From: a virus | Taxonomy: Duplodnaviria; Caudoviricetes | Direction: 5' to 3' (one strand) | DNA length: 32,168 nucleotides | Virus record (IMG/VR): IMGVR_UViG_3300020044_001276 | Coordinates: 1-32,168 of that record | Part shown: in pieces, positions 17,687 through 32,168 of the stretch | Layout of the letters: each line of letters opens with the position of its first letter | Position numbering within the stretch: the first letter of the stretch is position 1 | Position numbers and translations under genes: made by a program | Notes under the pieces: generated by a model | Told to the model about the DNA's origin: nothing | What the model saw: the letters and a program-made list of their open reading frames with translations, nothing else | Databases searched by the model: none

Positions 17687-18352
17687 CTATCCTTTGTTGT
17701 ATTCACATTGTTTAACTGAACACCACTTGCACAGTGGGCCACTCTTGGGGTTCCATACCCCACTCATGAATGCACCTTCAAGTCGCTCAATATCGGGCAG
17801 TACTTTCTGTACATACACAGACTTCATTTTCGCATCATGTTCAGCTTTTACAAACTCTTTGCTGACTACGAACATAAGCGCAGACTTGACCCGCTCGATC
17901 TCGGGGTACTTGGCAAACAGGGCGGCGGCAATCAAATCAAGCTGACCCATGTCGGCATAGCGTGCGTTCTTACTTGTCTTGTAGTCGACTGAGTAGGCCA
18001 ACTTTTTCTCGCGGTTCAGAATAACCAAGTCGGCAATCCCATGCCACCATACGCCCTCGGCTGAGAATTCACAGGGCTGTAAATCTTTGGTCAGACCAAG
18101 TTTGACCTCGCAATGCTTTTCCCCGGGGATGGCGTTTAGTCTATCTAGCGAAGACTTAACGTACGAAAACTTTTCTGGGATCGGCGTTCCGTCTCTTATG
18201 TATTCTTCAGCGGCAGTATGCATCTCTTTGCCATACAGCGTAGCGGTTGTGTCCCCCTCGATTACATCCTTGGCAACCTTGGTGTGATAGTACTTCTTAG
18301 GGCACTGCTGAAATGTTTTCAGGCTACTGAATGACCAAATTAACTGCTTCAT
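17687..18352 (-). CDS. Cas4-like PD-(D/E)XK exonuclease
   Basis: [23 protein letters not shown] and C-terminal CKWC..C; probable start MKQLIW at 18352. Confidence 0.85.
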
Positions 18353-19095
18353 ATATCTTCCCTTGTGTACTTCTTCCAAATCTCTTTCGCGTCCATTTCC
18401 CAAATGTGGCCTACCAATTCCTTCAGCTCTTGGTACATATCGGGCTTCTCTGTCTTTAAATTCTCTACCCATGGCGCGTCTTGAAGCGCGGGTCTAAGTT
18501 CCCACCACAATTTGCGTTTCTTGGACGTCAAGAAACTTCCATTAGTAAAAGCCCGCTCCTGTATTTCTTTTTCTATTTCTTTTTCTCGCTCTTCTCTAGC
18601 TTCTTTCCATCTTTTTTGTATGTCACGAAGTTCTTTTTTCTTGTCTTCTGTTGTCTTATAGTAGTCTTCAGGCATCCAAATTTGTCTTAGTATTGCGCTA
18701 CGCTCCGGCCTCTTCATTTTGCGTAATGCTTTGGCTTCAATCTGCCTGATACGCTCCCTAGTTACGCGGAACGCAACCCCAACTTCCTCTAGGGTGTAGT
18801 CGCTGTCCAACCCAATACCAAATCGCATCTGCAACACTTTAGCTTCCCTTGGCGTAAGAGTGTCTAACATTTCTTTAACATGCTCGGCTAACTGCGCCTT
18901 GCATAGCTCTTCATCAGGGTCGATAGTTGGTTCTTCCTCGTATGGTAGGCATGGGAACTCAGGCAACATTGAATCTTCTTTGCACCCATAATAGTAATAA
19001 ACTTTGATAAGTTCTTGGCTTGCACCCGCAAGTGTGCCGTAGGGTATGGTATGCCCCTTGAATACTTTATTCTTCGGGCGGGAATCTTTTTTCAT
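18349..19095 (-). CDS. Protein with a stand-alone RpoD-like sigma70 region 4 domain
   Basis: [41 protein letters not shown]; no region 2; start uncertain (19095 chosen). Confidence 0.85.
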
Positions 19096-19207
19096 AGAAC
19101 TCTTTGCGCTCGCTGTAACTCCACCGCTCCCACGAATAGTGCACTTCGGCAAACCGCCTGTGTGTATATTTCCATAATATACGGACGCCATTCTCAGCAT
19201 GCTCCAT
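19067..19207 (-). CDS. Small hypothetical protein, 46 aa
   Basis: MEHAENG... fills the gap and overlaps both neighbours. Confidence 0.45.
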
Positions 19208-21008
19208 AAGTCTTGCCGTGTCCGGCCTCGCAGTTAAGTGGCAACTCAAGCGCCCACTTGGGTCGCACCTTCATACACATCTCAACGTATTCTTGCGCGG
19301 TTTCAACCTCAGCCTTGGGTACGATGCACGCAATCGCGTCATGTACAGTCATCACCACTTTGTATTTCTTAGCAATCAGTAGCATCTGCTCGCCGATCAC
19401 GATACGAGCTAACGCTTGGCACACGTTCTCGATTACCTTGCCGCCGTAGATTCGGTTCGGTATTGTGGCTTTGCCTTTCTTGGTGTCGTACACAAGTTCG
19501 GTCTTGCCCTCTTCCGTGCGTTTACGCAAGTTGGGGTAACGTAGCCACAATCCGTTTGGTAGGAGGATGCCGTCCTTGCCTTCGATCTTTAGCACCTTGT
19601 CCCTGCCCAGTCCCATCGCAGAGCCACGCAGTATTGCATCTAGCGCCGTACCCGCTTCTTTCCACAGTGCAGTAATTTTCGGGTAAGTAGCTCTATACGT
19701 ATCAATGATTCGCTTCGCTTCCTCGCTCGATACTTCAACACCAAAATTTTTAAGTTGCATCTGAAACTTCGCAGACCCCATGCCGTAGCCTGCACCGAGA
19801 ATCGTAGTTTTGCCGACGAATCGTTCGTCCTTGGTGATCTCAGAAATGGGTTTGTTGTAAATTGCCGTCGCCATGATTTTGTATACATCCTCGCCACGAT
19901 CAAATGCCTCCACTAAGTCGTTCTGTTCCGCAAGCCATGCTAGCGTACGGGCTTCAATTTGTGATGAGTCTGAGTCGATCATCATGTACCCTTCAGGCGC
20001 GAAGATAGCGTGCTTCAGGGGTGAGTTGCGTGGAATGTTTTGAAGGTTGAGCTTGTCGTCACCACCCCAACGGCCTGTGTGAGCGGCGTAGTAGCGGAGG
20101 GGAACTGGCATAAGTCCTCGTTTGGCAATGCCAATAAACCTTTCGGTTCGCGTTTCCTCGATGGTCGACTTCGTGCCAAGGCGTGCGGCTACTAAGGCTT
20201 GCACTGCGGGGCTATCGTGTTCAAGTAATGCTTTAAACTCTTCGTCAGTCTTAGAGAATGCGTAAGTCTCTTTACCTGTTGCCGCGCTGATCTTCGTTGG
20301 CGGTGTAGCTCCTGCGGCTTGCAACATAATGGCAAACTTTTGATTGCTCATCATGTCCTCTTTAACATAGTCCCCCAATGCCATGGCCTTTAAATCCTGC
20401 ACTGACTCCAAGTGGTCACCGAGTACTTGTAGGTCCAGCGCCAAAGACGGTTCTGTAAACATGCGTATGGTTAAGTCAATTAGCCGCAGCTCTACTTGTG
20501 GAAACCCTGCGCTCATATTGCCAAACAACTCCCATGTCAGGGCTACGTCGTTCTTGCAGTACTCGCCGTACCTTGCTAACTGCTCAGGCGAGAAGTCGAT
20601 GCGTCTAAGTCCAAGGGCGTTCTCAACTTCCGTACCCTTCTCACCAATGCTGTAGTACTCTGCTAGTACCTTTAGACTGCCACCTACGTTAGTACCATGA
20701 AGGGCTCGACCCATTGACAGCGTGTCCAACCAACCCTTTGGTTTAATGTCGAAGTGCCAGTTTAAGATTGCCCCATCGAATATGGCATTGTGTGCTAGAG
20801 CCAATGAATTGGCCCAGTCGAATCGGCTAAGGTACATGGCGGTTTCAACCATCGTACCGCTGAACCATTCAGGCTTACCATCATCCACCTGCACTGATAC
20901 ACCTACCACATGGAACTGCGGGTCACGGATGTACTCTTCGGTTGTCTGCTTACCAAAGCCTACGTCCCTTGAATAGAACGTCTCGAAGTCAACTGTAATT
21001 ATTTTCAT
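19194..21008 (-). CDS. polA: Family A DNA polymerase with 3'-5' exonuclease domain
   Basis: DFET, AHNAIFD; motif A DSSQIEAR, motif [15 protein letters not shown], motif C VHDA. Confidence 0.95.
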
Positions 21009-21307
21009 TTTAAATTCTTTGCCATTTTGATGTGTATCTCAATATCGGCTAGGTTGGTCTCGTTGATGACCAAAGCCACACCGCCTGATTCGGTAATTTG
21101 TTTTAGGTTTTTATCTTGCAAGGCTGTCGTAGTGCCTTTGCCTGCCTTGGCTTCTATCGCTACAAAGTAGCCGTTCATACAGCAGAGAAAATCGGGGACG
21201 CCACTGCTTCCGTAGCCAGTACCAATCGGCATGGCGTAGTAAATGTTGTGGGCTTTAAGGATTGCCTTGATCTTTGCCTTGACCTTGGCTTCAGGTGTTT
21301 GTGCCAT
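21005..21307 (-). CDS. VRR-NUC / Holliday-junction-resolvase-like nuclease
   Basis: TPEAKVK, GVPDF, AIEAKAG..T.LQ; start MAQTPE at 21307. Confidence 0.85.
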   Translation of the reverse strand: MAQTPEAKVKAKIKAILKAHNIYYAMPIGTGYGSSGVPDFLCCMNGYFVAIEAKAGKGTTTALQDKNLKQITESGGVALVINETNLADIEIHIKMAKNLK

Positions 21308-21663
21308 TACTTTTTCCACCCAATGAACGTAGTGCCCTTGTGTTGGAACATAGCGAGTGTTGGTTTGTTTTCGCAAGTCTCGCAAGAGAACTCAACGAGC
21401 AAAGCGCCTCGGCCTTGTGAGCTTGGGTCGTTCGTGGCTTCGGGGTCTACGCAGGCGGTAGTAATAGTACTGCCCATTATGTGCGTGACGCGAGTACGAG
21501 GTTCTGATTTATACGCGCCTGTTTTTACGTCCCATGTATGGGCATTGTTATCGGGGTTGAAGATCGAATAATCTTCTTGGTGCAAATTGTTGCCGCCACA
21601 CTAGGGGCACTCGTCCAACGCATCTTCGTCTAACTTCAAAGGCTCTAAAAAAGTATTCATCAT
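21307..21663 (-). pseudogene. Zn-ribbon protein gene interrupted by an in-frame TAG (CP*CG ... CETC)
   Basis: SD GGAG and ATG at 21663 are in frame with ORF 21307-21585; single TAG at 21603-21601. Confidence 0.6.
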
Positions 21664-21688
21664 TAACTCCAGTTGTGTTTATGGAGTC

Positions 21689-21716
21689 AATATAACACGC
21701 TGTTTGACTTTGTCAA
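21689..21716 (-). promoter_or_regulatory. sigma70-type promoter TTGACA-16-TATATT with extended -10 and palindromic -35
   Basis: - strand TTGACAAAGTCAAACAGCGTGTTATATT, just downstream of a terminator. Confidence 0.7.
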
Positions 21717-21728
21717 TAGTACAGACGT

Positions 21729-21751
21729 AAAAAAACCGCCCGAAGGCGGTT
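21729..21751 (-). terminator. Rho-independent terminator with cUUCGg tetraloop ending the early region
   Basis: AACCGCC-TTCG-GGCGGTT followed by TTTTT. Confidence 0.9.
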
Positions 21752-21761
21752 GGGATATACC

Positions 21762-21774
21762 CTAACATTGTTAG
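21762..21774. repeat. Palindrome CTAACAWTGTTAG copy 1 (intergenic, between stop codon and terminator)
   Basis: cctaacattgttagg. Confidence 0.95.
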
Positions 21775-21780
21775 GTCGTT

Positions 21781-22296
21781 TTACTTCAGCGCATTGATCT
21801 CGCGTGTCAGATACCACTGTGCTTTGCGCAAGTCTTCGAGCTTGTTGCCCTTGTGGTCGGCGCGGGTCAAGTACTTCACCACGTTGCCGATGTTGTAGTT
21901 GAGCTTCTTCGCTTCGATGAAGTCGATGGTCTCGATTCCACCTACCTTGTAATGGGCAGGGTGATTCACTGGGTCGGCTTTTGGCTCGAACATCTCGATC
22001 TGAACGGGCGTGTCTAAGAATGGGTGTACATCACGGCTACCATCTGCGGCTTGCATCAGGCGTTTGTTTTTGTACTCATCCACCAATCGCTTCAGGTTAG
22101 CTGATGCTTGCGTAACCTTACGTGGTCGGCCTAACTTCTTGGCTTTCTTCTTCGCGTTCCACATAACTGTGTATACGTACTGAAGCCCAACACCGATAGC
22201 CTCGGCTATCTCCTTTGGTTTAGCCTTGGGGTTCTTGGCTACATACGCACGTACCTGTTGTGCTTTGGTCACTTTTTTGGTTGCTAATTCGATCAT
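21781..22296 (-). CDS. N-terminal HTH-like and C-terminal DUF3310-like protein
   Basis: PKEIAEAIGVGLQYVY; DPVNHPAHY..GGIETIDFI...GNVVKY..RA..K...EDLRKAQWYL. Confidence 0.85.
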   Translation of the reverse strand: MIELATKKVTKAQQVRAYVAKNPKAKPKEIAEAIGVGLQYVYTVMWNAKKKAKKLGRPRKVTQASANLKRLVDEYKNKRLMQAADGSRDVHPFLDTPVQIEMFEPKADPVNHPAHYKVGGIETIDFIEAKKLNYNIGNVVKYLTRADHKGNKLEDLRKAQWYLTREINALK

Positions 22297-22499
22297 GGTT
22301 TCACTCCTAATTGGTTATTAACGTACTCGGTAAGAACTTCTCTCATCTTGGCTTGCTTTGACATTGGATGGTTGGTGTCGAAATAATCCATCACCTCCTT
22401 CGGTAGTCGCAAGCTCGTGCAGGCTAAAGCGGGTTTCTTACCAAGCCCCCGCCCCTTGCGTTTCTTCTCTAACTTCAAATACTCAATTCCTGTGGTCAA
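22293..22499 (-). CDS. Ribbon-helix-helix protein, BrnA-antitoxin-like
   Basis: RGLGKKPA..TSLRLPKEVMDYF...QAKMREVL; TTG start. Confidence 0.55.
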   Translation of the reverse strand: MTTGIEYLKLEKKRKGRGLGKKPALACTSLRLPKEVMDYFDTNHPMSKQAKMREVLTEYVNNQLGVKP

Positions 22500-22663
22500 A
22501 ATGGTGCCTCTTCATAATCTGATTGTGGTTTCTTTGGTTTGGGGAATCGCTTTGGGTCGAGTCGTGTGAACGGCCACCACGCCATTAGCTCCTCCTGAGT
22601 CAGCACCTTGTTTGACAAGGGCTTCGTAGTATCCTGTTGGGTACTTTGCTTTTTGTTTGACAT
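22496..22663 (-). CDS. Small hypothetical protein (WWPF...EEAPF)
   Basis: ATG at 22663; stop overlaps the next start; overlaps the 86-aa ORF in another frame. Confidence 0.5.
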   Translation of the reverse strand: MSNKKQSTQQDTTKPLSNKVLTQEELMAWWPFTRLDPKRFPKPKKPQSDYEEAPF

Positions 22664-22772
22664 AGTTTCTAAGCCAGTCGGCTCCACCTAATTCTTTAAA
22701 CTGCGCCCACTCCACATCACTTAAACGTACGAATCGTCCCTTTAGGGGGGCGGGGGGCTTTGGTCTTGGCAT
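22512..22772 (-). CDS. Small putative RHH-type DNA-binding protein
   Basis: MPRPKPP...VRLSDVEW..FKELGGADWLR; SD AAGGAG. Confidence 0.6.
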   Translation of the reverse strand: MPRPKPPAPLKGRFVRLSDVEWAQFKELGGADWLRNYVKQKAKYPTGYYEALVKQGADSGGANGVVAVHTTRPKAIPQTKETTIRL

Positions 22773-22968
22773 GCTCTAGTACTCCTTCATGCTTATTCGG
22801 TTGTCTTTCTTTGGCTCGTGTGAACGTACCAAATTGTTTGTAGCCTAAGCCTTCTTCGCTCTTGATCGTGCCAGTGCTTTGTTTGGCGCGAAAGTATGCG
22901 TCTTTTAAGAAAATGCTAGGTCGGTCAACTTGCGCTAGCTCTTCCCATGCGTTAAGTGTTTTGTTCAT
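22717..22968 (-). CDS. Hypothetical protein
   Basis: ATGA overlap with the upstream gene (start MNKTLN). Confidence 0.6.
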   Translation of the reverse strand: MNKTLNAWEELAQVDRPSIFLKDAYFRAKQSTGTIKSEEGLGYKQFGTFTRAKERQPNKHEGVLEHAKTKAPRPPKGTIRTFK

Positions 22969-23174
22969 TTCTTCATACCTCTTACAAACGCGGCAAAACT
23001 CCAAGAGGTATCGCCAAACGCTGTCATCTTCTCAAACTCTTTCGCCACTTCTTCCAATACAGTATTACGCTGTGATGGTGAAACATAGACGTCGTAGTGG
23101 TACGGCTGACCCTTCTTCATCTCAGCTTCATGGGCAATGCGCTCGAACTCATCGTCTTCGTCTGTGTGTATCAT
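22965..23174 (-). CDS. Hypothetical protein
   Basis: SD AAGGAG, ATGA coupling. Confidence 0.75.
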   Translation of the reverse strand: MIHTDEDDEFERIAHEAEMKKGQPYHYDVYVSPSQRNTVLEEVAKEFEKMTAFGDTSWSFAAFVRGMKK

Positions 23175-23392
23175 GTGTTCTTCTCCTTGAGTGGGTCAGT
23201 CGTAAACTTGTTGTCGCCTGTAGCAACCCAGTAGCCTTCACGATAACCCTCGTAGTGAGCCAGCCATCTGCCGTTTAATGATTGCTCGCTCATGTGGTCA
23301 ACCTCACCGCGCTTCATGCCCTCAATGTAAGCATTCTTTCGGTTGGTCGCATACCTTGAGGCATCTGTGTGTAGTAGTTCTTCGGGTGTCAT
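23171..23392 (-). CDS. Hypothetical protein
   Basis: SD AAGGAG, ATGA coupling. Confidence 0.75.
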   Translation of the reverse strand: MTPEELLHTDASRYATNRKNAYIEGMKRGEVDHMSEQSLNGRWLAHYEGYREGYWVATGDNKFTTDPLKEKNT

Positions 23393-23406
23393 GTGTTCTT
23401 CTCCTT
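23171..23406 (-). repeat. 18-bp direct repeat AAGGAGAAGAACACATGA at 23171-23188 and 23389-23406
   Basis: Identical SD + KEKNT* + ATGA junctions flank the 73-aa gene. Confidence 0.9.
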
Positions 23407-23613
23407 AAGTTTGGCTTCAATAGCTTTGACTAAATCTTTCAGGTTTCCACCTTCCTCCCAATCAATTTCATCCTCATCAGTCAGCCCTACCCACTCACGC
23501 TTGGGTTCGTAGTGATACGGCTGTCCCATGTCACGCAGTATCTGCTTGCCAAGGTTGCTGTGTTTCTCGACGTTGTTAAAGGCTTCGTCTTCTTCCTGTG
23601 TCCAGTTGGTCAT
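23389..23613 (-). CDS. Hypothetical protein (WVGLTDED...AIEAKLKEKNT)
   Basis: SD GGAGG, ATGA coupling. Confidence 0.75.
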   Translation of the reverse strand: MTNWTQEEDEAFNNVEKHSNLGKQILRDMGQPYHYEPKREWVGLTDEDEIDWEEGGNLKDLVKAIEAKLKEKNT

Positions 23614-23792
23614 GTTTCCTCCAATACTTCAAAGATTACTTTTCTGATCTTGGTGTATGCGTCTGCTTTGGTAAGCGGAGACGACAGTATCTCGTCGATC
23701 TCGCACAGTGCATCGTAGTATTCGCTACCTTTCATCGCGTGTTGTAACTTGTACTCATCGTCAGGGTAATAGAACTCAAGAACGGCTTTCAT
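23610..23792 (-). CDS. Hypothetical protein (MKAVLEF...)
   Basis: Internal ATG of the track ORF, overlapping the upstream 55-aa ORF. Confidence 0.65.
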   Translation of the reverse strand: MKAVLEFYYPDDEYKLQHAMKGSEYYDALCEIDEILSSPLTKADAYTKIRKVIFEVLEET

Positions 23793-23943
23793 AAGCGGTG
23801 CCTTTCGTGAGGCGGAGGAGCAGTCTTGCTTTCCTCCAAGTTCTTCTGACGTCGGTTGATGCGGCGTCGACCCATTTAAATTTGGGATGGTTGCAATCCC
23901 GTAGCGGGATGACTTTTGATTGATATTTGATTTCATGTTTCAT
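23776..23943 (-). CDS. Hypothetical protein, 55 aa (not in ORF track)
   Basis: MKHEIKYQ...AASTDVRRTW...; SD AGGAG overlaps palindrome copy 2. Confidence 0.65.
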   Translation of the reverse strand: MKHEIKYQSKVIPLRDCNHPKFKWVDAASTDVRRTWRKARLLLRLTKGTAYESRS

Positions 23944-23953
23944 TCCAATTCTC

Positions 23954-23966
23954 CTAACATTGTTAG
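23954..23966. repeat. Palindrome copy 2 (overlaps SD)
   Basis: ctaacattgttag. Confidence 0.95.
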
Positions 23967-23973
23967 CCTGTTT

Positions 23974-24858
23974 TTATGCTAGTTCCCGCTCTGCGGTAAG
24001 TACAACAAACACCTCGGTAGTGGCTCGGCAACCCACACCCTCGATCATCTGCTCAGGCTCTACTAACTTCAACATACCTAACTTACCTCTAAACTCAACG
24101 GGGAGCGTATTATCATCGTAAATTTGTATATCGTCACCTGTTTTAACTAAGTACTTTCCATTAGCTACTAAGATTAAGCTAGTGCCAGCGCCTCTGAACT
24201 TACCTTCTATGTCAGTAACAGTTAGCATCTCAGCTTCTGTCTCGCGTAACTTACTCAGCCTGTGCCCCTGCCCATTAGTAATTGCGTACTTCTGAAACAA
24301 ATCCCACATATCTTTAAATACAAACGCCTTCATAAGTGGTGCAAGCTCTGAGAAAGCGGATTGATAATCCCCACGCTTGCGACTACTCTGTCTACCAATG
24401 GCACGAGTGGCTTCTGCGAACGCATCGTTCATACGCTCGGTTACGCTCTTTGGGTTGAATGTTTTCTTGATAGCGGCTAGGGCTTTCTTAGCATCCTTAG
24501 TGCGATACGCGCCTACACGCTCACGCTCATTTCTGATCGTGTTGCTAGCGATAGAAAAGATATAGCCCCCTGCATCGTAGCGGTAGTCCCTGTCGATAAC
24601 ACCGACCTCTTCCCCATCCTTGAATACCTTGAACTTACTAACTGTAAGTCGTGGGCGGTCATCATTATCTCCACTCTTGATCTGTCCGTAGTACTGCTCA
24701 ACTCGGAACTCCCATGTTGGGTTCTCGGTGATGACCTTCCACATGATCTCATTCAATGGTTTCTCAACATTGAACTCGAAGTCACTCTTACGCCTACCAT
24801 TCAACAGCTTATCGCTGATGGTGACGTTACTCAATGTCATTGCTGTGTTTGCATCCAT
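23974..24858 (-). CDS. Hypothetical protein, 294 aa
   Basis: SD AAGGAG; long ORF. Confidence 0.8.
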   Translation of the reverse strand: MDANTAMTLSNVTISDKLLNGRRKSDFEFNVEKPLNEIMWKVITENPTWEFRVEQYYGQIKSGDNDDRPRLTVSKFKVFKDGEEVGVIDRDYRYDAGGYIFSIASNTIRNERERVGAYRTKDAKKALAAIKKTFNPKSVTERMNDAFAEATRAIGRQSSRKRGDYQSAFSELAPLMKAFVFKDMWDLFQKYAITNGQGHRLSKLRETEAEMLTVTDIEGKFRGAGTSLILVANGKYLVKTGDDIQIYDDNTLPVEFRGKLGMLKLVEPEQMIEGVGCRATTEVFVVLTAERELA

Positions 24859-24868
24859 GATTATCTCC

Positions 24869-25294
24869 TTAAAAATCTTCTGTAATATCCACTAAGCCCT
24901 CGGGCTCATGCTCTCCGTTGTTTCGCTCAAAGCTACCGCCGTAGTACCCATTACTAGAGTTGCGGAACTCGATCAGACATGTGCCTTTCTCGGTGTGCAC
25001 TTTGTGAAACAAAACCTCATCGGAGTCCTGTCTCGTTGGCTCAGGCTCAACACCTAGCATGCTGTGAAAGTCAAACTCCTCAACCTGTGTGACAGTTCCA
25101 CCTATCAAGTTATGTATATCGTTCACATGGTTAACCCATGACTCACTGCAACAGTCGCCATAGCAGTAGTAGTCAATATTGCCCGTGGTCGTAACGAATC
25201 GCACATCGCTCTTGTCCGGCGTCATCTGCACGCTCAGTATCTTTCTACCAACCAAGTCGGCTAGCTCTAATTCATCTGTGTATATGTTGGCCAT
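24869..25294 (-). CDS. Hypothetical phage protein (GDCCSESW, NSSNGYYGG)
   Basis: SD AAGGA; conserved-looking motifs. Confidence 0.75.
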   Translation of the reverse strand: MANIYTDELELADLVGRKILSVQMTPDKSDVRFVTTTGNIDYYCYGDCCSESWVNHVNDIHNLIGGTVTQVEEFDFHSMLGVEPEPTRQDSDEVLFHKVHTEKGTCLIEFRNSSNGYYGGSFERNNGEHEPEGLVDITEDF

Positions 25295-25303
25295 TGTGTG
25301 TCC

Positions 25304-26152
25304 TTACCATTCAAACTTCTTAATGATTGCATCGACCTTGGCCTTGACCTCGGTGCGATGATGCTCGTCTTCCTTGATTGCATCTATGTTAGTACCTAAC
25401 ATTGTTAGCTCTAATTCCCTGCGTGCCTCTTCCAACTTGGGGTCGTTGGTGATGTTCATCTTGGTCAGCAGTGAGCAAAGCTCTAGCGGGTTGCTCACCA
25501 ATGTGTCGTGGTAACGCTTCTTACCGCCTACTGTGTCGTCCAGTTTCTTGGACATGCCTACTAACATTTCATGCAAGCGCTCCCATGGCTCACGCATAGC
25601 GTCAGCTAACTTGTTGTCCTGCTGTGCGTTGAACTCAGCTCGCATCTCCTCTAAGTCATTCGCGGGTATGTCTAAGCGAAAGTCGCCCGCCTCTGGCACC
25701 GGCTTGACTGTGCGACGGAATCCAAACTTCAGCTTCACCGCTTCAAGCTCGGGGTAGTCCTCTGCCTTGTACATCTTGCCTAGGTGCGTAGGTGCATCCT
25801 GTACTAATGACGGATACGCCTGAAAGAATGAGTCACACATTGTGTTGAACGTCTGCTCGTATGCGTTCATGGTCTGCTTGTATTCCATAAACAATGCAGT
25901 CGGCAACATACGCTCACCCTTGTCTGCCCATGGTAAGGTGCGTTGGTTGTGATACAGCCGAACTTTAGCCGCGAAGTTCTCGATCTCTTTGCGCAAGCTA
26001 GTGCCTGCGAATAAGTTCTTGTGGACACGCGCTGCGTCAACGACTGCTGATGCGTCAGTATTCACTTGCGCTGTTGTGTCTCGGTCTAGCTTTGATGCAG
26101 GCCAAACGCTGATGTTCAATTCCACTAACACTGCTGATGCACTAATACTCAT
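25304..26152 (-). CDS. DUF3150-like protein
   Basis: Start MSISAS after AGGAG; TLPW...R.LP and YP..E...KF patterns; sits beside VWA and AAA genes. Confidence 0.6.
   Translation of the reverse strand: MSISASAVLVELNISVWPASKLDRDTTAQVNTDASAVVDAARVHKNLFAGTSLRKEIENFAAKVRLYHNQRTLPWADKGERMLPTALFMEYKQTMNAYEQTFNTMCDSFFQAYPSLVQDAPTHLGKMYKAEDYPELEAVKLKFGFRRTVKPVPEAGDFRLDIPANDLEEMRAEFNAQQDNKLADAMREPWERLHEMLVGMSKKLDDTVGGKKRYHDTLVSNPLELCSLLTKMNITNDPKLEEARRELELTMLGTNIDAIKEDEHHRTEVKAKVDAIIKKFEW
25396..25408. repeat. Palindrome copy 3 (inside CDS, encodes LTML)
   Basis: ctaacattgttag. Confidence 0.95.
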
Positions 26153-26165
26153 TTCGTTCTCCTGT

Positions 26166-26336
26166 TTAACTAAAAATTTGTTCGACCGATTCAACAAACC
26201 AATGCGAATCGTCCATGTTCACTACATCTGATTCAATACGCTTCCAAGCTAATGCCTCGGCTTCGTCTTCGTTCTCGGCTTCCACAGTCACAATGACATA
26301 GGTTGTCCGTTGTAGTTCCACCTCGTATGTTTTCAT
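26166..26336 (-). CDS. Small acidic protein, 56 aa, DpnD/PcfM-like (not in track)
   Basis: MKTYEVELQRTTYVIVTVEAENEDEAEALA; SD AGGAG. Confidence 0.65.
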   Translation of the reverse strand: MKTYEVELQRTTYVIVTVEAENEDEAEALAWKRIESDVVNMDDSHWFVESVEQIFS

Positions 26337-26337
26337 T

Positions 26338-26589
26338 TCATTTCTCCTGTGGTTTACCGGCTAATCTAGCCATTTGATATTTACTGTCACTCATAATCTG
26401 CATAGTGAAGTTGGTGTCATTCGGGTACACATGGTAGGTATAAGTCTCATCCATGCCGAACTGCCTGCGCTTCTCGTCATTCCAGTACTTCTCTTCGTAC
26501 ACCTCTGCACCTTCCAAGCAATCTATTAGCACCATTGCTTTGTCACGAGGCAACACAAACTTTTTGTATCCCATTTCAATTACTACCAT
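26338..26589 (-). CDS. Hypothetical protein
   Basis: SD AAGGAGG before MVVIEMG. Confidence 0.75.
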   Translation of the reverse strand: MVVIEMGYKKFVLPRDKAMVLIDCLEGAEVYEEKYWNDEKRRQFGMDETYTYHVYPNDTNFTMQIMSDSKYQMARLAGKPQEK

Positions 26590-26599
26590 TTCGACCTCC

Positions 26600-27805
26600 T
26601 TAGTCTTTGATATGAATCGTTTTGCCGTTGTCAGCCACCGCATCATTGCCTCCTGTGATTACCCACATAGTTGGAGCAGTCCACTCGCTACCCCAGTTCG
26701 GTACATAGCCGTCGGTCAACACGATGATGCACTCGGGCTTGATGTTCTCGTCACGCAGATGTATGGATACGCAACTAGGGTCAGTACCCCCACCACCCTT
26801 GGGTTTGGTTGAGCTAACAATGTTAGATACCTCTCCACCCTCATACTTCTCATGCCCCGCTACTGCACCATCCCAATAGATCAAGTCAACGATCTCGGGG
26901 TTGACTTCCTCAGCCACACCTTTGACCTCAGCTAAGAATTCGTTAAGCTCATGCCCACCGATAGACCCCGATGTGTCAATCGCTACGACGATATGCCCAA
27001 CCTTCTCACCGATCATGCTCGGCATATAAGTACCGCCCGATAAGAATCTGCGGTTGACCCTACGCCATGATGATGTGTCTTTGTTGGCGCAGGTGGCTTT
27101 CACATACTCGCGTAGTTCTTCGCGCCAGTTAACCTTGGGTTCCAAGTGCTCGTCAATCTCACGCCCGATACCACCCGCACCTTTGCCGTTGGCTTTCTCA
27201 TGCGCCATGAGTCCCTGCCGAATAGCTTGGTCGATCTCGCGCTCGAGGGTTTTCTTCTCCTCCTCGGTCATGTCCTTCGCACCATCCCAATCATGGTCAT
27301 CGAGTCCACCACCATCACCATCGCCACCTTCGCCGCCCTCGCCACCTTCCTGATCTTCGAGTAGATCGAACACTTGCTTGGAGTTCATGCCTTTGAATCG
27401 TGGGTCATACAAACCCATGCGCTCACCCTTGTGCGGTCCATCCTTATACTTAGGCATGGCGATAATGTCCTCGTTGGGATCGAGTTCTCGGAGCATGTAG
27501 TTAATAACGTAGTCACAAGCCATGTTTGCCCGTCGGTGATCTTGGTCATGGAGTTTTTTCCATGTCGTCAAGTGCCGGTACATTTTGTGCGACACCTCAT
27601 GCGCCACAAGAAATGCCAGTTCCTTGTCGGTCAACGACGCCACGAACTTACGTCCGTACTTCTCATCGCGTCCGTTGGTGCACGCAGTTGGAATGTCATC
27701 CACTACGCTAGTACGGCCAACCATCATTACACCTTGGAGTAAGGCGAACTTAGGATTACGCATGAGCGTGATCTTGGCCTTCTGCAGTTTACGTTCTTCT
27801 AACAT
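26600..27805 (-). CDS. DUF2201-type HExxH metallopeptidase plus VWA domain protein
   Basis: PTACTNG, AHEVSH, N.ACDYVIN; MIDAS DTSGS, GGGTD, LTDGY; start MLEERK lies in palindrome 5 after AAGGAG. Confidence 0.88.
   Translation of the reverse strand: MLEERKLQKAKITLMRNPKFALLQGVMMVGRTSVVDDIPTACTNGRDEKYGRKFVASLTDKELAFLVAHEVSHKMYRHLTTWKKLHDQDHRRANMACDYVINYMLRELDPNEDIIAMPKYKDGPHKGERMGLYDPRFKGMNSKQVFDLLEDQEGGEGGEGGDGDGGGLDDHDWDGAKDMTEEEKKTLEREIDQAIRQGLMAHEKANGKGAGGIGREIDEHLEPKVNWREELREYVKATCANKDTSSWRRVNRRFLSGGTYMPSMIGEKVGHIVVAIDTSGSIGGHELNEFLAEVKGVAEEVNPEIVDLIYWDGAVAGHEKYEGGEVSNIVSSTKPKGGGGTDPSCVSIHLRDENIKPECIIVLTDGYVPNWGSEWTAPTMWVITGGNDAVADNGKTIHIKD
26814..26826. repeat. Palindrome copy 4 (inside VWA domain, SNIVS)
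   Basis: ctaacaatgttag. Confidence 0.95.
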
Positions 27806-27811
27806 TGTTAG
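27799..27811. repeat. Palindrome copy 5 (contains upstream TAA and downstream ATG)
   Basis: ctaacattgttag. Confidence 0.95.
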
Positions 27812-28026
27812 GCTCCTTCGTTTAATATGTTTACTAACTTCTGACAAACTTCTCTGTCGGCATGCTCGAACAAAGTCTCGCACTTCCTTGTGTCGTATAC
27901 ACAATACCCAAGTATCTGTATTTGCAAAGTACCGCTTTCGTTGTGGCGTCGTTCGATCACCCACCTAGCTATGTACCTACCCCTTCGCAGTAAATCTTCT
28001 GCGGTTGTTCCATTGAACGCCATCAC
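27808..28026 (-). CDS. Hypothetical protein
   Basis: SD AGGAGG; stop inside palindrome 5. Confidence 0.7.
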   Translation of the reverse strand: MMAFNGTTAEDLLRRGRYIARWVIERRHNESGTLQIQILGYCVYDTRKCETLFEHADREVCQKLVNILNEGA

Positions 28027-28244
28027 AAACCTCCTTCTACTAGCAACCTAGCCATAAGCTGTAACTCCTGCAGGGATTCAAAGTCATGCACCTTGTCAAG
28101 GCTTCCCTTGTCGATTCGATACAGTACATATCTATCCTTGCCGTTGTCGGTGTACCCACCCATCGCATACCCTGCTTCATGTAGCTTGGCATAGGAGAAT
28201 GGGTCAGACTCAATCCACTGCCCCTCGTTATCAGAGTAAGTCAT
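28023..28244 (-). CDS. Hypothetical protein (MTYSDNEG...)
   Basis: Internal ATG overlapping the end of the ATPase gene. Confidence 0.65.
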   Translation of the reverse strand: MTYSDNEGQWIESDPFSYAKLHEAGYAMGGYTDNGKDRYVLYRIDKGSLDKVHDFESLQELQLMARLLVEGGL

Positions 28245-29295
28245 GGTTCTTAGCAACCCAGTCAGCGAACGCCTTGCAACTAAATGCAATGCTCTGCTTG
28301 CTTGGTGTCTTGGCAATGTTGATTGCGAACACGGCTTGCCACTCGGCATCGAATCGAGACAAGTACTCCATGAATGGGGCAATGGTTGTCTTGTCTACCC
28401 TAGCAATCGCACCGAATACCACAATCGCACAAGCACCTGCTGACGTAGGAATACTCGTGGTCTTGGGATGTTGGATAGTCGACTCCCATGTTGGCAACTG
28501 ATCTGAGAACTCAATGTATGCTTGCATATCACGAGCGGCTGACTCACCGATAGCGCCTGTCAATGCGGCAATCACAGTCTCAGGGTCGTTGTCCTTACGT
28601 GTCCTAACAATGTTAGATGCCGTCTCGAGCGAGCGTGGTGACACAAAGGCTTTCTGAGAATTCTTAGGGTTGTAGATGTAGGGGTTGTCGCCTTGCCCTG
28701 CGTCCGTGTAACTTGCCATGGCATGAGGGAATCGGTTGACCCATGCAATAACCTCGGGCTCGATACCTTTGTTGATAGCCCACTCAATCCATTGGTCGGC
28801 ATCGGGTTTGCTGATCGTCACGGGCACCAGTCGGTTACGGCTATGCGCTTTCAGGTTATCGCCCACGCCGTCGGTGCTCAGGTTGCCAGTCAGGAACACC
28901 ACAGTATTAGAGTCGAGCGGTAGATCACCGAGTCGAGGATTCGCCTTCTCTAGCATTGGGTGCAACATATTTTTAACTGGGTCTGCACCCTTGGTAAACT
29001 CGTCGAGCATGATTACCATGGGCTTGCCGTTGTGGATACCAAAGCGAGCGTTGGGGTAGTAGCGTGTGGTCTTGGTTTCGTGGTCGATCACCGGCATGGC
29101 AATGTCGCCCAAGTCCATGTTAGGGACGTCGATGTAGGCGTAGTCGTAGCCCATGCCACTAGCAATACTCTCCAAGAGGGAAGACTTGCCGATTCCTGGC
29201 TCGCCTTGCAGTAGGAACCTTGTGGTTGGGTTAGTACGGATAAGGTTAGCCGCTTGCTTGAGGGTAATTGATTTACCGAATTTGATTTCTGACAT
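28231..29295 (-). CDS. MoxR-like AAA+ ATPase
   Basis: Walker A GEPGIGKS, Walker B MLDEF, TGN sensor, NR finger, SPRS. Confidence 0.9.
   Translation of the reverse strand: MSEIKFGKSITLKQAANLIRTNPTTRFLLQGEPGIGKSSLLESIASGMGYDYAYIDVPNMDLGDIAMPVIDHETKTTRYYPNARFGIHNGKPMVIMLDEFTKGADPVKNMLHPMLEKANPRLGDLPLDSNTVVFLTGNLSTDGVGDNLKAHSRNRLVPVTISKPDADQWIEWAINKGIEPEVIAWVNRFPHAMASYTDAGQGDNPYIYNPKNSQKAFVSPRSLETASNIVRTRKDNDPETVIAALTGAIGESAARDMQAYIEFSDQLPTWESTIQHPKTTSIPTSAGACAIVVFGAIARVDKTTIAPFMEYLSRFDAEWQAVFAINIAKTPSKQSIAFSCKAFADWVAKNHDLL
28604..28616. repeat. Palindrome copy 6 (inside ATPase, SNIVR)
   Basis: ctaacaatgttag. Confidence 0.95.
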
Positions 29296-29319
29296 TTCTA
29301 ATATCCTTCTGATTTGTGC

Positions 29320-29332
29320 CTAACAATGTTAG
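29320..29332. repeat. Palindrome copy 7 (5' UTR; extends to 17-bp GCCTAACAATGTTAGGC)
   Basis: Lies between the promoter at 29392-29420 and the ATPase start. Confidence 0.95.
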
Positions 29333-29391
29333 GCGGGTTACTGTTACTCTAATACTCTGATTCGATGCTTGATTTGTTTGCATCAGCTTAT

Positions 29392-29420
29392 ATTATACCA
29401 CAATGTTATGGCAATGTCAA
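29392..29420 (-). promoter_or_regulatory. Consensus sigma70 promoter TTGACA-17-TATAAT with extended -10
   Basis: - strand TTGACATTGCCATAACATTGTGGTATAAT. Confidence 0.9.
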
Positions 29421-29425
29421 GTCCT

Positions 29426-30634
29426 TTAGTCATAGGTACGACTAAAGAATTCCTCGCGTTGTTCAGGTGTCGGCATGATCGTTACCAATTTGTCGTACCT
29501 ATCGTTGGGTAGTTGGTTGGGTTTGAGCTCGCGCTTGTCGATCATCTCGTCGCTGTGGTATCTCAGCAGTGCATTGTCGAATGTACTGAGCGCGATGTTT
29601 GCGTGAACAAACACTTGCTTGTCGTCACCATCCAACGGCCAACTGTAAATGTAGCCAAGCGACAGACCTAACAATGTTAGGGAGGCTCGGTAGTAGTTTT
29701 CAGTCCGTGTCTCCTCGGGTTGGTCATCCGCGATCAACGAAAAGAATTGCTTACATTGGCGCTGATACTTAGACCACTGCGTCTCTGACGGCATGGCATG
29801 ATCTTTCGCAACATTGAGCAACCGATTGACTGTCGGCGTCAGGCACTGCACCCCTTGCGGTTTGCTCTGTATCTGTACCACGTTACGCAAGTCAGGCTTC
29901 CACCGCATCACCTCGGGTTGCGGAACAACATTCGCACTCCAGTTCACATCCTTGAACGTCTCGTAGCCAATGCAGTCGGCCATCTCCATGAGTGACATGG
30001 GAATCATCTCGTGTGTCTCTACCTTGCGGTAGTTACTGCCGCCTGTGGTCATTGCCTCTTTGCGTAGGGATATGAACCCCTCGTAGTACTTGATGAACTG
30101 CGAGTAGCGTGACCTAACATTGTTAGACTGCTTGCGGTTAATGTAGTACGAATAGATCACATCCTTCTTGAACACGCGCAGGGAATTCTCTCCCGCTTCT
30201 TTAATACACTCAAGCACGAGCACGCCCCCGCCCGCAACTACATAGCGTTCGTCTTTGATCTTGATGCCGATCTTTTTGCGGTCGAGCCAAGCGGGTGTAG
30301 CTAGTACGCGCTCAATCATGCCCGACTCCATCAGTCCCATCCATGAGGGTGTGATGATGATTTTGTTGTCGGGTGTGTAGGTGAGCACGACTCGTCCGTA
30401 ACAGACAAGCTCGATGTGCCTACTCTCCTCGTCTTGCCTGATTGAGTAGGTATCAATGTCGCTTCGTCTGCCAAGTGGCACGCATGGGTTAACTTTATTG
30501 CCCCATCTGTGGTTGGTTGGTGTGCGTCCGCGAATAGGCTTCGTTGACTTGAAGCGGGTCAATGCTTCCTGATACGAGCGTATGCGCGGTAGGTAATAAG
30601 TTGAGGGATAAACCCCCGTCCGTGTTTCTTTCAT
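29426..30634 (-). CDS. Hypothetical protein, 402 aa
   Basis: Long ORF, SD GGAG; no recognised motif. Confidence 0.8.
   Translation of the reverse strand: MKETRTGVYPSTYYLPRIRSYQEALTRFKSTKPIRGRTPTNHRWGNKVNPCVPLGRRSDIDTYSIRQDEESRHIELVCYGRVVLTYTPDNKIIITPSWMGLMESGMIERVLATPAWLDRKKIGIKIKDERYVVAGGGVLVLECIKEAGENSLRVFKKDVIYSYYINRKQSNNVRSRYSQFIKYYEGFISLRKEAMTTGGSNYRKVETHEMIPMSLMEMADCIGYETFKDVNWSANVVPQPEVMRWKPDLRNVVQIQSKPQGVQCLTPTVNRLLNVAKDHAMPSETQWSKYQRQCKQFFSLIADDQPEETRTENYYRASLTLLGLSLGYIYSWPLDGDDKQVFVHANIALSTFDNALLRYHSDEMIDKRELKPNQLPNDRYDKLVTIMPTPEQREEFFSRTYD
29668..29680. repeat. Palindrome copy 8 (inside CDS, LTLL)
   Basis: ctaacaatgttag. Confidence 0.95.
30114..30126. repeat. Palindrome copy 9 (inside CDS, SNNVR)
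   Basis: ctaacattgttag. Confidence 0.95.
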
Positions 30635-30638
30635 AACA

Positions 30639-30812
30639 TTACTCCATCATTTCTGCGGGTGCGCGTAGGCGCAGGGCTTTCACATTCTTCAGCGTTGGGT
30701 ACTTCAGAACGAAGCGCTCCCTTGCTGTGCTTATGTCTTTGGCCTCGGCAACCTCAGTCACCCAGTAACCAAAGCGGTTACTCCATCCTGTCATTAGATA
30801 CTTGGCTAACAT
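30639..30812 (-). CDS. Hypothetical protein, 57 aa (not in track)
   Basis: MLAKYLMTGWSNRFGYW...; SD GGAGG; ATG inside palindrome 10. Confidence 0.65.
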   Translation of the reverse strand: MLAKYLMTGWSNRFGYWVTEVAEAKDISTARERFVLKYPTLKNVKALRLRAPAEMME

Positions 30813-30818
30813 TGTTAG
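30806..30818. repeat. Palindrome copy 10 (contains TAA and ATG)
   Basis: ctaacattgttag. Confidence 0.95.
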
Positions 30819-30934
30819 ATACCCTCCAATAAACTAAAACAACCAACCCACTCACGGAATGTCGATTGGTTTGCAAGTGGCAACCACTCTAGTTGCCCGC
30901 GCACCATGCGCTCAACACAAATAGTTCCTTTCAT
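30815..30934 (-). CDS. Small hypothetical protein, 39 aa
   Basis: MKGTICVERMVRG...; TGATG coupling; stop in palindrome 10. Confidence 0.5.
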   Translation of the reverse strand: MKGTICVERMVRGQLEWLPLANQSTFREWVGCFSLLEGI

Positions 30935-31056
30935 CACAACCCCTTCACAATAGCGATCAACAGCAGAAAGACTGCGAACACAAAGGACGCGAACGGATTC
31001 ATCGCCCTTGCTAGGAATATCTGCGAAAGCAGAAAAAAGTATTCGGCTGGTGTCAT
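30934..31056 (-). CDS. Small membrane peptide, 40 aa
   Basis: MTPAEYFFLLSQIFLARAMNPFASFVFAVFLLLIAIVKGL. Confidence 0.5.
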   Translation of the reverse strand: MTPAEYFFLLSQIFLARAMNPFASFVFAVFLLLIAIVKGL

Positions 31057-31087
31057 AGCATCTTCCCTTCGTCCATTAAAAACACTT

Positions 31088-31180
31088 TCATAACGGCCTC
31101 CAATAAAGTAAATCTAAAAGCACCACAATTAAACCAAGCAGGAACACAACCCGCTCAAACTTTTCAAACCCGCCTAACAT
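31088..31180 (-). CDS. Small membrane peptide, 30 aa
   Basis: MLGGFEKFERVVFLLGLIVVLLDLLYWRPL; SD AAGGAG; ATG in palindrome 11. Confidence 0.6.
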   Translation of the reverse strand: MLGGFEKFERVVFLLGLIVVLLDLLYWRPL

Positions 31181-31424
31181 TGTTAGTCTCCTTCATGTCT
31201 TCCATTAGTACTACTAGGTCTTCGATCAAGTCTTGGATGCAGTCGCCTCGGATTGGGTGAATAGGTTCAACGCCCATGTCCTCAGCCATTTGGCTCACAT
31301 CTGCAAACAACTTGTCCCAACCCGTAGCCCAGTCGGTCATGTCGTACCAACCGATTGGGTGGATTTCGTGGTCGGAGAACAAATAGCCCCAGTACATCAT
31401 CCCTGTGTTTTCTTTACCTAACAT
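31164..31424 (-). CDS. Hypothetical acidic protein
   Basis: SD GAGGAGG; ATG in palindrome 12. Confidence 0.7.
   Translation of the reverse strand: MLGKENTGMMYWGYLFSDHEIHPIGWYDMTDWATGWDKLFADVSQMAEDMGVEPIHPIRGDCIQDLIEDLVVLMEDMKETNNVRRV
31174..31186. repeat. Palindrome copy 11 (contains ATG)
   Basis: ctaacattgttag. Confidence 0.95.
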
Positions 31425-31638
31425 TGTTAGCCTCCTCGTCTGCTAGTTGGTCGATCATCTTGATTACCCTGTTACTGCCCACCTCACGGATTAGCCACAG
31501 AACGCTTCGCCCTGCGTCAACGCCATGTCCGTTATGGGTTTTAAACAGACGCCTTACTAGGCGTAACACAATCCAATGGTGTGCTTCGGGTTCTTTGTAT
31601 TTACCTAACTTAGTCATCATGGTCTTCCTCATCTTCAA
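31414..31638 (-). CDS. Hypothetical protein
   Basis: Overlaps both neighbours; start uncertain (possibly ~31620). Confidence 0.6.
   Translation of the reverse strand: MKMRKTMMTKLGKYKEPEAHHWIVLRLVRRLFKTHNGHGVDAGRSVLWLIREVGSNRVIKMIDQLADEEANNVR
31418..31430. repeat. Palindrome copy 12 (contains ATG)
   Basis: ctaacattgttag. Confidence 0.95.
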
Positions 31639-31906
31639 GAAATTCTGTCATCCCAATACTTTGAAGCAACCCCCTCGAGTACTCGATCTCAAGGTTTAAC
31701 TGCTCTATGTACGAGCCTTCCTCTATGTAACTGTCGGCAGTCTCTAATAGATTGCTCAACGCCCACGCCAACAAAGTAGTCCTCGCTTGCGCATCAATCC
31801 AACCCGCAGTCCATATCATGCGATCTCGGTCAGACATGTTTTGCTCGTTGTTGTCGGCTTCCCACTGGTGGAACGCCTCGTTTGCTTTCACTTGTTCATC
31901 TAACAT
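31610..31906 (-). CDS. Hypothetical acidic protein
   Basis: Start MLDEQ in palindrome 13 after GAGG. Confidence 0.65.
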   Translation of the reverse strand: MLDEQVKANEAFHQWEADNNEQNMSDRDRMIWTAGWIDAQARTTLLAWALSNLLETADSYIEEGSYIEQLNLEIEYSRGLLQSIGMTEFLEDEEDHDD

Positions 31907-31912
31907 TGTTAG
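31900..31912. repeat. Palindrome copy 13 (contains ATG)
   Basis: ctaacattgttag. Confidence 0.95.
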
Positions 31913-31914
31913 CC

Positions 31915-32166
31915 TCACAGTTCTACGATGATTGTTAGCTTGTTAAATGTGTCGGCATCGACTTCTTGCCAACACCCTGCGCTTGTCATGCGGTCGCCAA
32001 AGTCGTGCATGCTGACAGTCCCATCACCCGCTTGCTCAGCCGCATCGCCCCAAAACTTGGAAGCAATCTCATCTAAGCGCTCTTCGGGGTGTGAGTCGGT
32101 TTTAAACTTGAACATGGAGTTAACCACGCTCTCGCCAAAGTAAGTCTCGATCTCGCCAATGTAATG
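31915..32166 (-). CDS. Hypothetical protein, 5'-truncated by the window edge
   Basis: Frame stays open to the end of the window. Confidence 0.6.
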   Translation of the reverse strand, partial: HYIGEIETYFGESVVNSMFKFKTDSHPEERLDEIASKFWGDAAEQAGDGTVSMHDFGDRMTSAGCWQEVDADTFNKLTIIVEL

Positions 32167-32168
32167 TT

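Follow-up and report, generated by a model that had tools for sequence, protein, structure and literature searches.

The window analysed here, a 32,168-base virus record (IMG/VR IMGVR_UViG_3300020044_001276), is a partial podophage contig whose minus-strand early operon carries a dispersed array of the palindrome CTAACA(A/T)TGTTAG. Judged by sequence comparison, this array is real, strongly selected and clade-wide, and it has a well-supported candidate reader in Gp1, a protein of about 160–185 amino acids (aa) that is encoded by the first early gene and has no recognised family. Protein and palindrome change together, and the pair likely forms a self-matched switch that would turn the early genes down. 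The palindromes would be binding sites for a Gp1 homodimer, which would build up after infection and then lower the early operon through repeated roadblocks to host RNA polymerase. I infer both the binding and the effect on transcription, the latter being the weakest step, and put the probability of such negative feedback at about one half; it is favoured over all the rival readings discussed below.

The palindrome array and its site classes

The 13 exact copies listed in the first-pass annotation, which was made from the letters of the window alone, were all recovered at their positions, with a central base on the plus strand of T in nine and A in four, as it had also stated. Dinucleotide shuffles of the window (n = 100) gave no match to the palindrome. 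Allowing up to two mismatches adds only two places, at 6233 and 16193, both off the array (1.68 expected), so the array is almost without degenerate members. Five copies lie mid-gene, in the peptide contexts previously described, four span a predicted ATG, one falls in the last codons of an open reading frame (ORF) and three are intergenic; eight of the 13 are at gene borders. The sites, to which no strand is assigned, are as follows.

21762–21774, last site of the array, just past the last early gene and immediately ahead of the early terminator
23954–23966, intergenic (exact scan)
25396–25408, in the gene of a 282-aa protein (LTML); exact in 36 of 46 same-class loci and 0 of 29 others
26814–26826, in the DUF2201 metallopeptidase/VWA gene (SNIV); exact in 40 of 48 same-class loci and 0 of 29 others
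27799–27811, spanning the predicted ATG of the VWA gene
28604–28616, in the AAA+ ATPase gene (SNIV); exact in 46 of 50 same-class loci and 0 of 30 others
29320–29332, intergenic, about 55–65 bases downstream of the consensus sigma-70 promoter at 29420
29668–29680, in the gene of a 402-aa protein (LTLL; exact scan)
30114–30126, in the same 402-aa gene (SNNV); present in homologues of merely 22–30% identity
30806–30818, spanning the predicted ATG of a 57-aa gene
31174–31186, in the last codons of an 86-aa ORF
31418–31430, spanning the predicted ATG of this 86-aa ORF
31900–31912, spanning the predicted ATG of a 98-aa ORF

At one site per 0.2–2.2 kb, or about one per 700 bases, the earlier picture of a protein that coats the region was an overstatement. 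The spacing increases along the direction of transcription, from about 250–500 up to 2192 bases (rho 0.87 in the window), a trend that is positive in 12 of 12 genomes, with p < 0.05 in ten.

Since the window is a truncated contig, its array is incomplete. A second contig, L417, is probably part of the same genome, as suggested by an exact end-to-end overlap of 121 bases with the end of the window. It contributes six further sites within 2.3 kb (five exact, one with one mismatch) and gp1 (L417:6995–7510), which is absent from the window itself; sites lie 160 bases upstream and 34 bases downstream of this gene, and the terminase genes lie beyond. In all five complete relatives (62–67 kb), 12–16 exact sites form a single block of 9.9–15.3 kb, which bears out the confinement to the early region that had been claimed from the window. 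This block begins beside the divergent small-terminase gene (terS), just upstream of gp1, and ends after the HTH-DUF3310 gene, at the early terminator. The last site has the same position in G001, G002, G003, G004, G006, G007, G009, G010 and G011.

A search with the ATPase yielded 80 loci, which are related, so that counts over them are non-independent draws. At least two further exact sites are present in 78 of these, in differing classes: CTAACA-N-TGTTAG, with the one-base spacer of the window (44 loci), a two-base spacer, mostly AA or TT (24 loci), a three-base spacer, AAA or TTT (two loci), a CTGACA half-site (two loci), and mixed arrays (six loci). The class, defined by a spacer of one, two or three bases or by altered half-sites, is a genome-wide property. 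A further class, CTTATA-NN-T[AG]TAAG, is seen in five copies at L055:264–9208, the first gene being outside that locus.

The intragenic copies allow selection on the peptide to be separated from selection on the DNA. The ATPase retains the peptide SNIV in 77 of the 80 loci, while the codons for it spell the exact site only in loci of the one-base class (the same-class loci of the list above), and the copies in the VWA and 282-aa genes follow the class similarly. Three CTGACA-class loci carry the site of their own class at the VWA position, where the peptide reads SDICQ. Selection therefore acts on the DNA, as the first-pass annotation had argued. In the two large classes, pairing between the site flanks does not exceed what their base composition predicts, and the centre base on the coding strand is A in 189 and T in 157 of 353 distinct contexts, both orientations being found; these results fit a duplex site. 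Three-base spacers are exclusively AAA or TTT (nine of each). A hairpin or cruciform was rejected on the lack of excess flank pairing.

Gp1 as the candidate reader

That Gp1 reads the palindromes is very probable, as several comparisons of relatives point to it. Forty of the 42 loci that span terS to the ATPase gene possess gp1 and 5–13 sites in that interval; the other two lack gp1, begin with an unrelated first gene, and have 0 and 1 sites. The highest identity between proteins of different site class is 57% for Gp1 (111 sequences), versus 70–99% for 15 of 17 other families, the remaining two being an 86-aa protein of patchy occurrence and the DarB-like protein (nine sequences). Gp1 falls into two deep types, A and B, that are about 20% identical. 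For type A, the one-base-spacer word is the top inverted repeat for 105 of 107 distinct proteins, and the majority class is one-base for all 21 of 21. Most type-B proteins are paired with the two-base class, the exceptions being L051, L061, L277, the short L274, L280, L291, and the mixed L048, L284, L289 and L300.

Gene trees and close relatives give a similar picture. Across 13 long contigs, the type-A cluster contains seven one-base and no two-base genomes, and families found in at least eight of these genomes, with at least three of each class, all need 2–4 class changes. For the class of the distal sites, the Gp1 tree implies fewer changes than seven of ten other gene trees, and ties with the other three. 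In the sister genomes G011 and G012, most core genes are 79–97% identical (94% for the ATPase and the terminase), whereas Gp1 gives no hit, and homologous sites are one spacer base apart by an indel; one old-class site is left in the ATPase gene of G012. Within type B, the residues just before the near-invariant W83 co-vary with the site, in few cases and with L303 as a counter-example: NID[KQ]M accompanies CTGACA, SQVDVY accompanies CTTACA, and a change of D to N or T accompanies fewer outer C (0.33–0.70 in five related loci and 0.50 in L268, versus 0.62–1.0 elsewhere).

The Gp1 of L417 is of type A and is 76% identical to the copy used for structure prediction. The AlphaFold2 model (139 rows, pLDDT 88.6) has helices at residues 12–22, 28–40, 55–73 and 79–95, a flexible linker and a hairpin at 117–155. 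Predicted as a homodimer, it scores 0.64, versus 0.02 for the best control, with at least 73% of contacts in agreement between runs and pLDDT of at least 73. The mark used is reached by 20 of 30 solved homodimers and one of 23 single chains, counts that apply roughly, since the homodimer run used its own alignment. Gp1 would dimerise via helices 15–40 and 117–157, leaving helix 79–95, of which just residues 82 and 86 are in the predicted interface, mostly free; this helix may read the half-site. The dimeric reader put forward earlier is thus likely, as Gp1 both tracks the site class and is a predicted homodimer.

Foldseek searches with two Gp1 models gave no match at E 0.001, and the best fold-search Z scores, 6.7 and 6.5, were to unrelated helical proteins (whole-chain models), which still allows a known family or fold. 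The 30 nearest clusters in the ESM Atlas are unnamed viral proteins, a Gp1 profile matches 313 clusters at 50% identity, and tblastn found no match to Gp1 among 50,697 phage records.

The first-pass annotation had named the helix-turn-helix (HTH) and ribbon-helix-helix (RHH) proteins of the phage as proteins to try for binding; those of the window are not supported as readers, and the likely reader lies outside it. Candidates were rejected because they do not follow the site class, being similar across classes: a 68-aa RHH-like protein (99% identity), TerS (93%), the HTH-DUF3310 protein (88%) and an 82-aa HTH protein (80%, eight sequences). An 86-aa RHH-like protein does split by class (57%, 19 sequences), but is present in only six of 13 genomes.

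A few loci depart from the usual arrangement. L071 has a tandem pair of type-A gp1 (5333–5845 and 6532–7020) with sites flanking each. Unrelated first genes of 161 and 174 aa replace gp1 at L046:6115–6600 and L064:5721–6245, and L046 has three TTACGTAA words near 5160–5340. By hhalign, the first early genes of L046 and of the cultured phages Pag-Yong1 and RHph_TM3_14A show no similarity to Gp1. Some loci (L044:647–1147, L011:6639–7121, L040:3129–3641) encode an early protein of 155–195 aa with two repeated strand-helix-helix-like segments.

Promoters, restriction-type words and function

Besides the sites, the following features of the window bear on function.

28231–29295, minus strand, AAA+ ATPase, phrog_1297
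26600–27805, minus strand, DUF2201_N + DUF2201 protein, phrog_1314
21734–21751, minus strand, intrinsic-terminator-like hairpin closing the early operon (consensus match only)
21689–21716, minus strand, sigma-70-like promoter (11/12) of the replication operon, outside the array
29392–29420, minus strand, sigma-70 consensus promoter (12/12) upstream of the ATPase gene
20820–32168, no strand, zone poor in the restriction-type words CCNGG, GGNCC, GCNGC, CCGG and GGCC
32048–32168, no strand, 121 bases identical to the end of L417, the probable continuation with six more sites and gp1

I located the site nearest to each of 108 strong promoters, which represent about three or four homologous positions. 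Its centre is at −46 or further upstream in 33 and at +33 or further downstream in 75 (+33 to +116 of the estimated start in 73), with none between −45 and +32, such that no promoter of the 108 has a site over its core, the classical feature of operators of the lambda or lac type. The 107 gp1 promoters have an upstream site at −56 to −112, and 48 of them a second at +32 to +66. No 10.5-base phasing is seen, either for the upstream site (p 0.23, 107 promoters) or for the distance between the two (p 0.32, 48 cases), on which grounds Class I activation and short rigid looping were rejected. That the sites avoid core promoters and lack helical phasing sets them apart from classical operators and makes a role as activator sites improbable.

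In the window, the array block has few restriction-type words (CCNGG 1 against 27, GGNCC 1 against 29, GCNGC 12 against 122). On the terS side, the depletion begins sharply, 160–250 bases before the first site (G002, G007, G009, G010 and L417), which suggests that this is the genome end that enters first. At the other side the poor zone continues for 0.9–4.4 kb past the last site in six of nine genomes, while the array ends at the terminator, and the depletion is weak in G003 and G005 despite the same array. That the poor zone outruns the array and is weak in these two genomes, and that the array stops at the terminator, favours feedback on early transcription. A link to transcription is also suggested by the nearest sites downstream of most strong promoters and by the spacing that increases in the direction of transcription. 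Two further observations concern this region: between terS and the first site, where the depletion starts, L417:6651–6830 and relatives have conserved G-rich tracts and a short word, a candidate genome end or packaging site; and in window 21700–32168, CATG and TCGA are enriched (p 2e-5 and 4e-4), other palindromic words being depleted.

A number of points weigh against feedback by Gp1 roadblocks. Some of these concern Gp1 itself. Searches of Pfam, PDB sequences and folds gave no convincing match, so DNA binding finds no support from the fold. Types as distant as A and B go with the same half-site, type-B Gp1 occurs with the one-base class in L051, L061 and L277, and mixed arrays with a single gp1 occur in L040, L048, L289 and L300; in L284, proximal and distal sites differ in class, and L303 has CTGACA sites with no change at the residue that differs in L040 and L041. 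The ties in the distal-class tree test are with three other early genes, and the assignment of L417 to the genome of the window rests on the 121-base overlap. Others concern the roadblock. The first site precedes the first promoter (at −56 to −112, without phasing) and the last site is after the last gene, leaving little to block, and the density gradient may only be due to a greater number of small genes towards the start. With stoperators, the block is reported to be lost when the site is reversed, which argues against simple steric roadblocks (PMC9283540).

The most serious rival, which I regard as possible though not probable, is that Gp1 marks the leading, first-entering genome end, for anchoring, compaction, shielding, or pacing of DNA entry until anti-restriction functions are made. 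The depletion of restriction-type words in the array block and its start ahead of the first site are as expected for this, the sites enclose the operon, are most closely spaced towards that end and are absent from core promoters, and in phage T5, second-step transfer is described as requiring the dimeric DNA-binding protein A2 (10.1101/866236). However, the array halts at the terminator and not where the restriction-poor zone ends, G003 and G005 combine the same array with weak depletion, and one 13-base site per about 700 bases would give little shielding.

A bolder proposal joins several of these elements, and I offer it tentatively, as doubtful. It would be a new self-recognition system of non-integrating phages, in which the first protein, a member of a helical family not yet described, uses the dyad array to mark the 12 kb that enter first, throttles the transcription that pulls in the DNA, and blocks the entry of kin of the same class; spacer and half-site classes would then be exclusion groups, switched by one gene swap and about 15 site edits.

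In its simpler form, exclusion would mean that Gp1 from a resident phage, in a carrier state or an ongoing infection, silences the early region of entering kin, with the classes as immunity groups. Close relatives show at least five site classes and also mixed arrays, Gp1 has been exchanged between backbones that are nearly identical, and in Cluster A phages, repressor and stoperator motif are reported to co-vary with immunity (PMC6550527). I nevertheless consider this unlikely: none of the five complete relatives encodes a tyrosine integrase, resolvase or ParA (PF00589, PF00239, PF13614), two pattern scans of GTDB genomes (with the ATPase and type-A Gp1) found no relative, and the array does not include the replication promoter. 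Exclusion by itself also gives no reason for a phage to keep the target sites, and fits better as a by-product of roadblock feedback. Feedback by roadblocks, marking of the entering end and immunity have the Gp1-site pair in common, and can coexist.

A host or virion protein as the reader, with class following the host, is very unlikely. Very different Gp1 types share one constant half-site, and mixed arrays could mean two hosts; against this, the class switches on backbones whose ATPase and terminase are 94% identical, one same class spans 46–53% G+C with differing word avoidance, loss of gp1 accompanies loss of the array, and the DarB-like and other virion proteins need 2–4 class changes on their trees (13 genomes). 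Least credible of all is that the sites anchor recombination by which small early genes are swapped, or act as RNA or single-stranded DNA hairpin signals, as core-gene sites are held at synonymous positions, the stem is not extended by the flanks, ten of the 13 window sites fold at a mere −1.6 to −4.2 kcal/mol and no recombinase was found, even though most sites border genes, public contigs have some strain joints at or near sites (30818, 31437–31909, 31165–31898) and repeat-to-repeat deletions are described for Cluster O (PMC4351075).

Elsewhere in the window are genes for a DNA polymerase A, a primase, an SNF2 helicase and a DarB-like protein of 2237 aa, which matches phrog_10089 and no polymerase family. 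An ORF at 18349–19200, inserted between the polymerase and exonuclease genes, matches Sigma70_r4 (E 3.5e-17) and is not seen at the corresponding place in G002. No close cultured relative was found by comparison of the ATPase, which is at most 27% identical to proteins of cultured phages (mostly N4-like by annotation), or of the polymerase, which is 38% identical to that of Rhizobium phage RHph_TM3_14A. The public runs in which part of the window occurs are metagenomes from rivers or other fresh water, or carry no label; no RNA run is among those listed, and contigs from them gave no extension of the window.

Comparison with known systems

N4-type hairpin promoters are oriented hairpin sites used by a virion RNA polymerase. 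They were rejected as a model for the array, since the 2237-aa protein has no polymerase family, sigma-70 promoters are present and the flanks do not pair. In enterobacteria, the 13-base-pair (bp) matS palindromes occupy one chromosome domain and are read by a dimer of MatP; that is a host chromosome system with another sequence, and MatP is absent from the fold-search matches of Gp1. The array also has what I take to be a likeness to integron attC ends, as to matS, with no recombinase or MatP-like match found.

Other dyad arrays are present in two of six cultured distant relatives. RHph_TM3_14A (L490, MN988472), whose early genes include the ATPase and the metallopeptidase, has 24 TTACC-N6-GGTAA copies and seven with N5, dispersed over positions 1–50000. 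Pag-Yong1 (L492/L493, OL906435) has about 25 GTTCA-N3-TGAAC copies, densest at 30–40 kb over the early operon, with one just upstream of the first early gene. No dyad array was found in 50 kb each of KPP25, DSL-LC04, HTVC023P and Caulobacter phage RW. The exact motifs and this type of array were not found in the literature searched, which was mostly open papers.

Phage T5, as described in 10.1101/866236, resembles the present case in its terminal early block, the first-step-transfer region, and in a dimeric DNA-binding early protein, A2, Gp1 being a dimer by prediction only. A terminal block poor in restriction-type words, as in T5, is found here too, weakly in G003 and G005. The T5 repeats cluster at the injection-stop region, unlike the dispersed array described here. 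The T1-like phage TLS is likewise lytic, with dispersed repeats near gene starts that have no function assigned to them; these are 21-nucleotide intergenic direct repeats, oriented and about 76 bases upstream of starts, and not dyads (PMC11447400).

The dyad array of the Cluster O mycobacteriophages (Corndog) is similar in more respects. According to its description, it consists of a 17-bp dyad (7+3+7) in 34 copies genome-wide, with no reader or function assigned; as here, the inverted half-sites are invariant, the AAA/TTT-rich centre has no meaningful orientation, about one third of copies are intragenic, density rises towards one end, integrase and ParAB are lacking, and a dimeric reader is predicted (PMC4351075). 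It differs in its sequence, its whole-genome spread and, in the same text, the lack of any reported class switching (PMC4351075), whereas the array presented here is limited to one operon and co-varies with one protein.

Dyad arrays of the Cluster O kind, in lytic phages, had lacked a reader and a function, and gain, loss and swap across relatives now provide a candidate reader, together with site classes that form a natural series and residues that may set specificity. If the proposal is true, a protein family with no known fold match would join the sequence-specific DNA binders and supply orthogonal protein-site pairs, and non-integrating phages could have immunity-like groups. Under the bolder self-recognition proposal, the dyad arrays of cultured distant relatives would represent a widespread, directly testable strategy.

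The Cluster A stoperators, typified by L5, to which the first-pass annotation had compared the array, are asymmetric, oriented, genome-wide sites of temperate phages, read by a monomeric HTH repressor (PMC9283540 and PMC6550527). In the same sources they share with the array many 13-mers off promoters, a site near the repressor's own gene, co-variation of motif and protein, and a proposed block of elongation. Stoperators are defined by more than 20 sites throughout the genome, an integrase or parABS, an asymmetric 13-mer oriented with transcription, and a site beside the reader gene with a motif that co-varies with the protein. Only the last is found here, for gp1; the five complete relatives have 12–16 sites in one block and none of the integration or partition families searched (0 of 5), which would still allow a carrier state, and the sites are perfect dyads, orientation-free and limited to one operon, with a predicted homodimer lacking a Pfam HTH as candidate reader. 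By analogy, the array resembles that of Cluster O and may act like stoperators, while lacking defining features of both.

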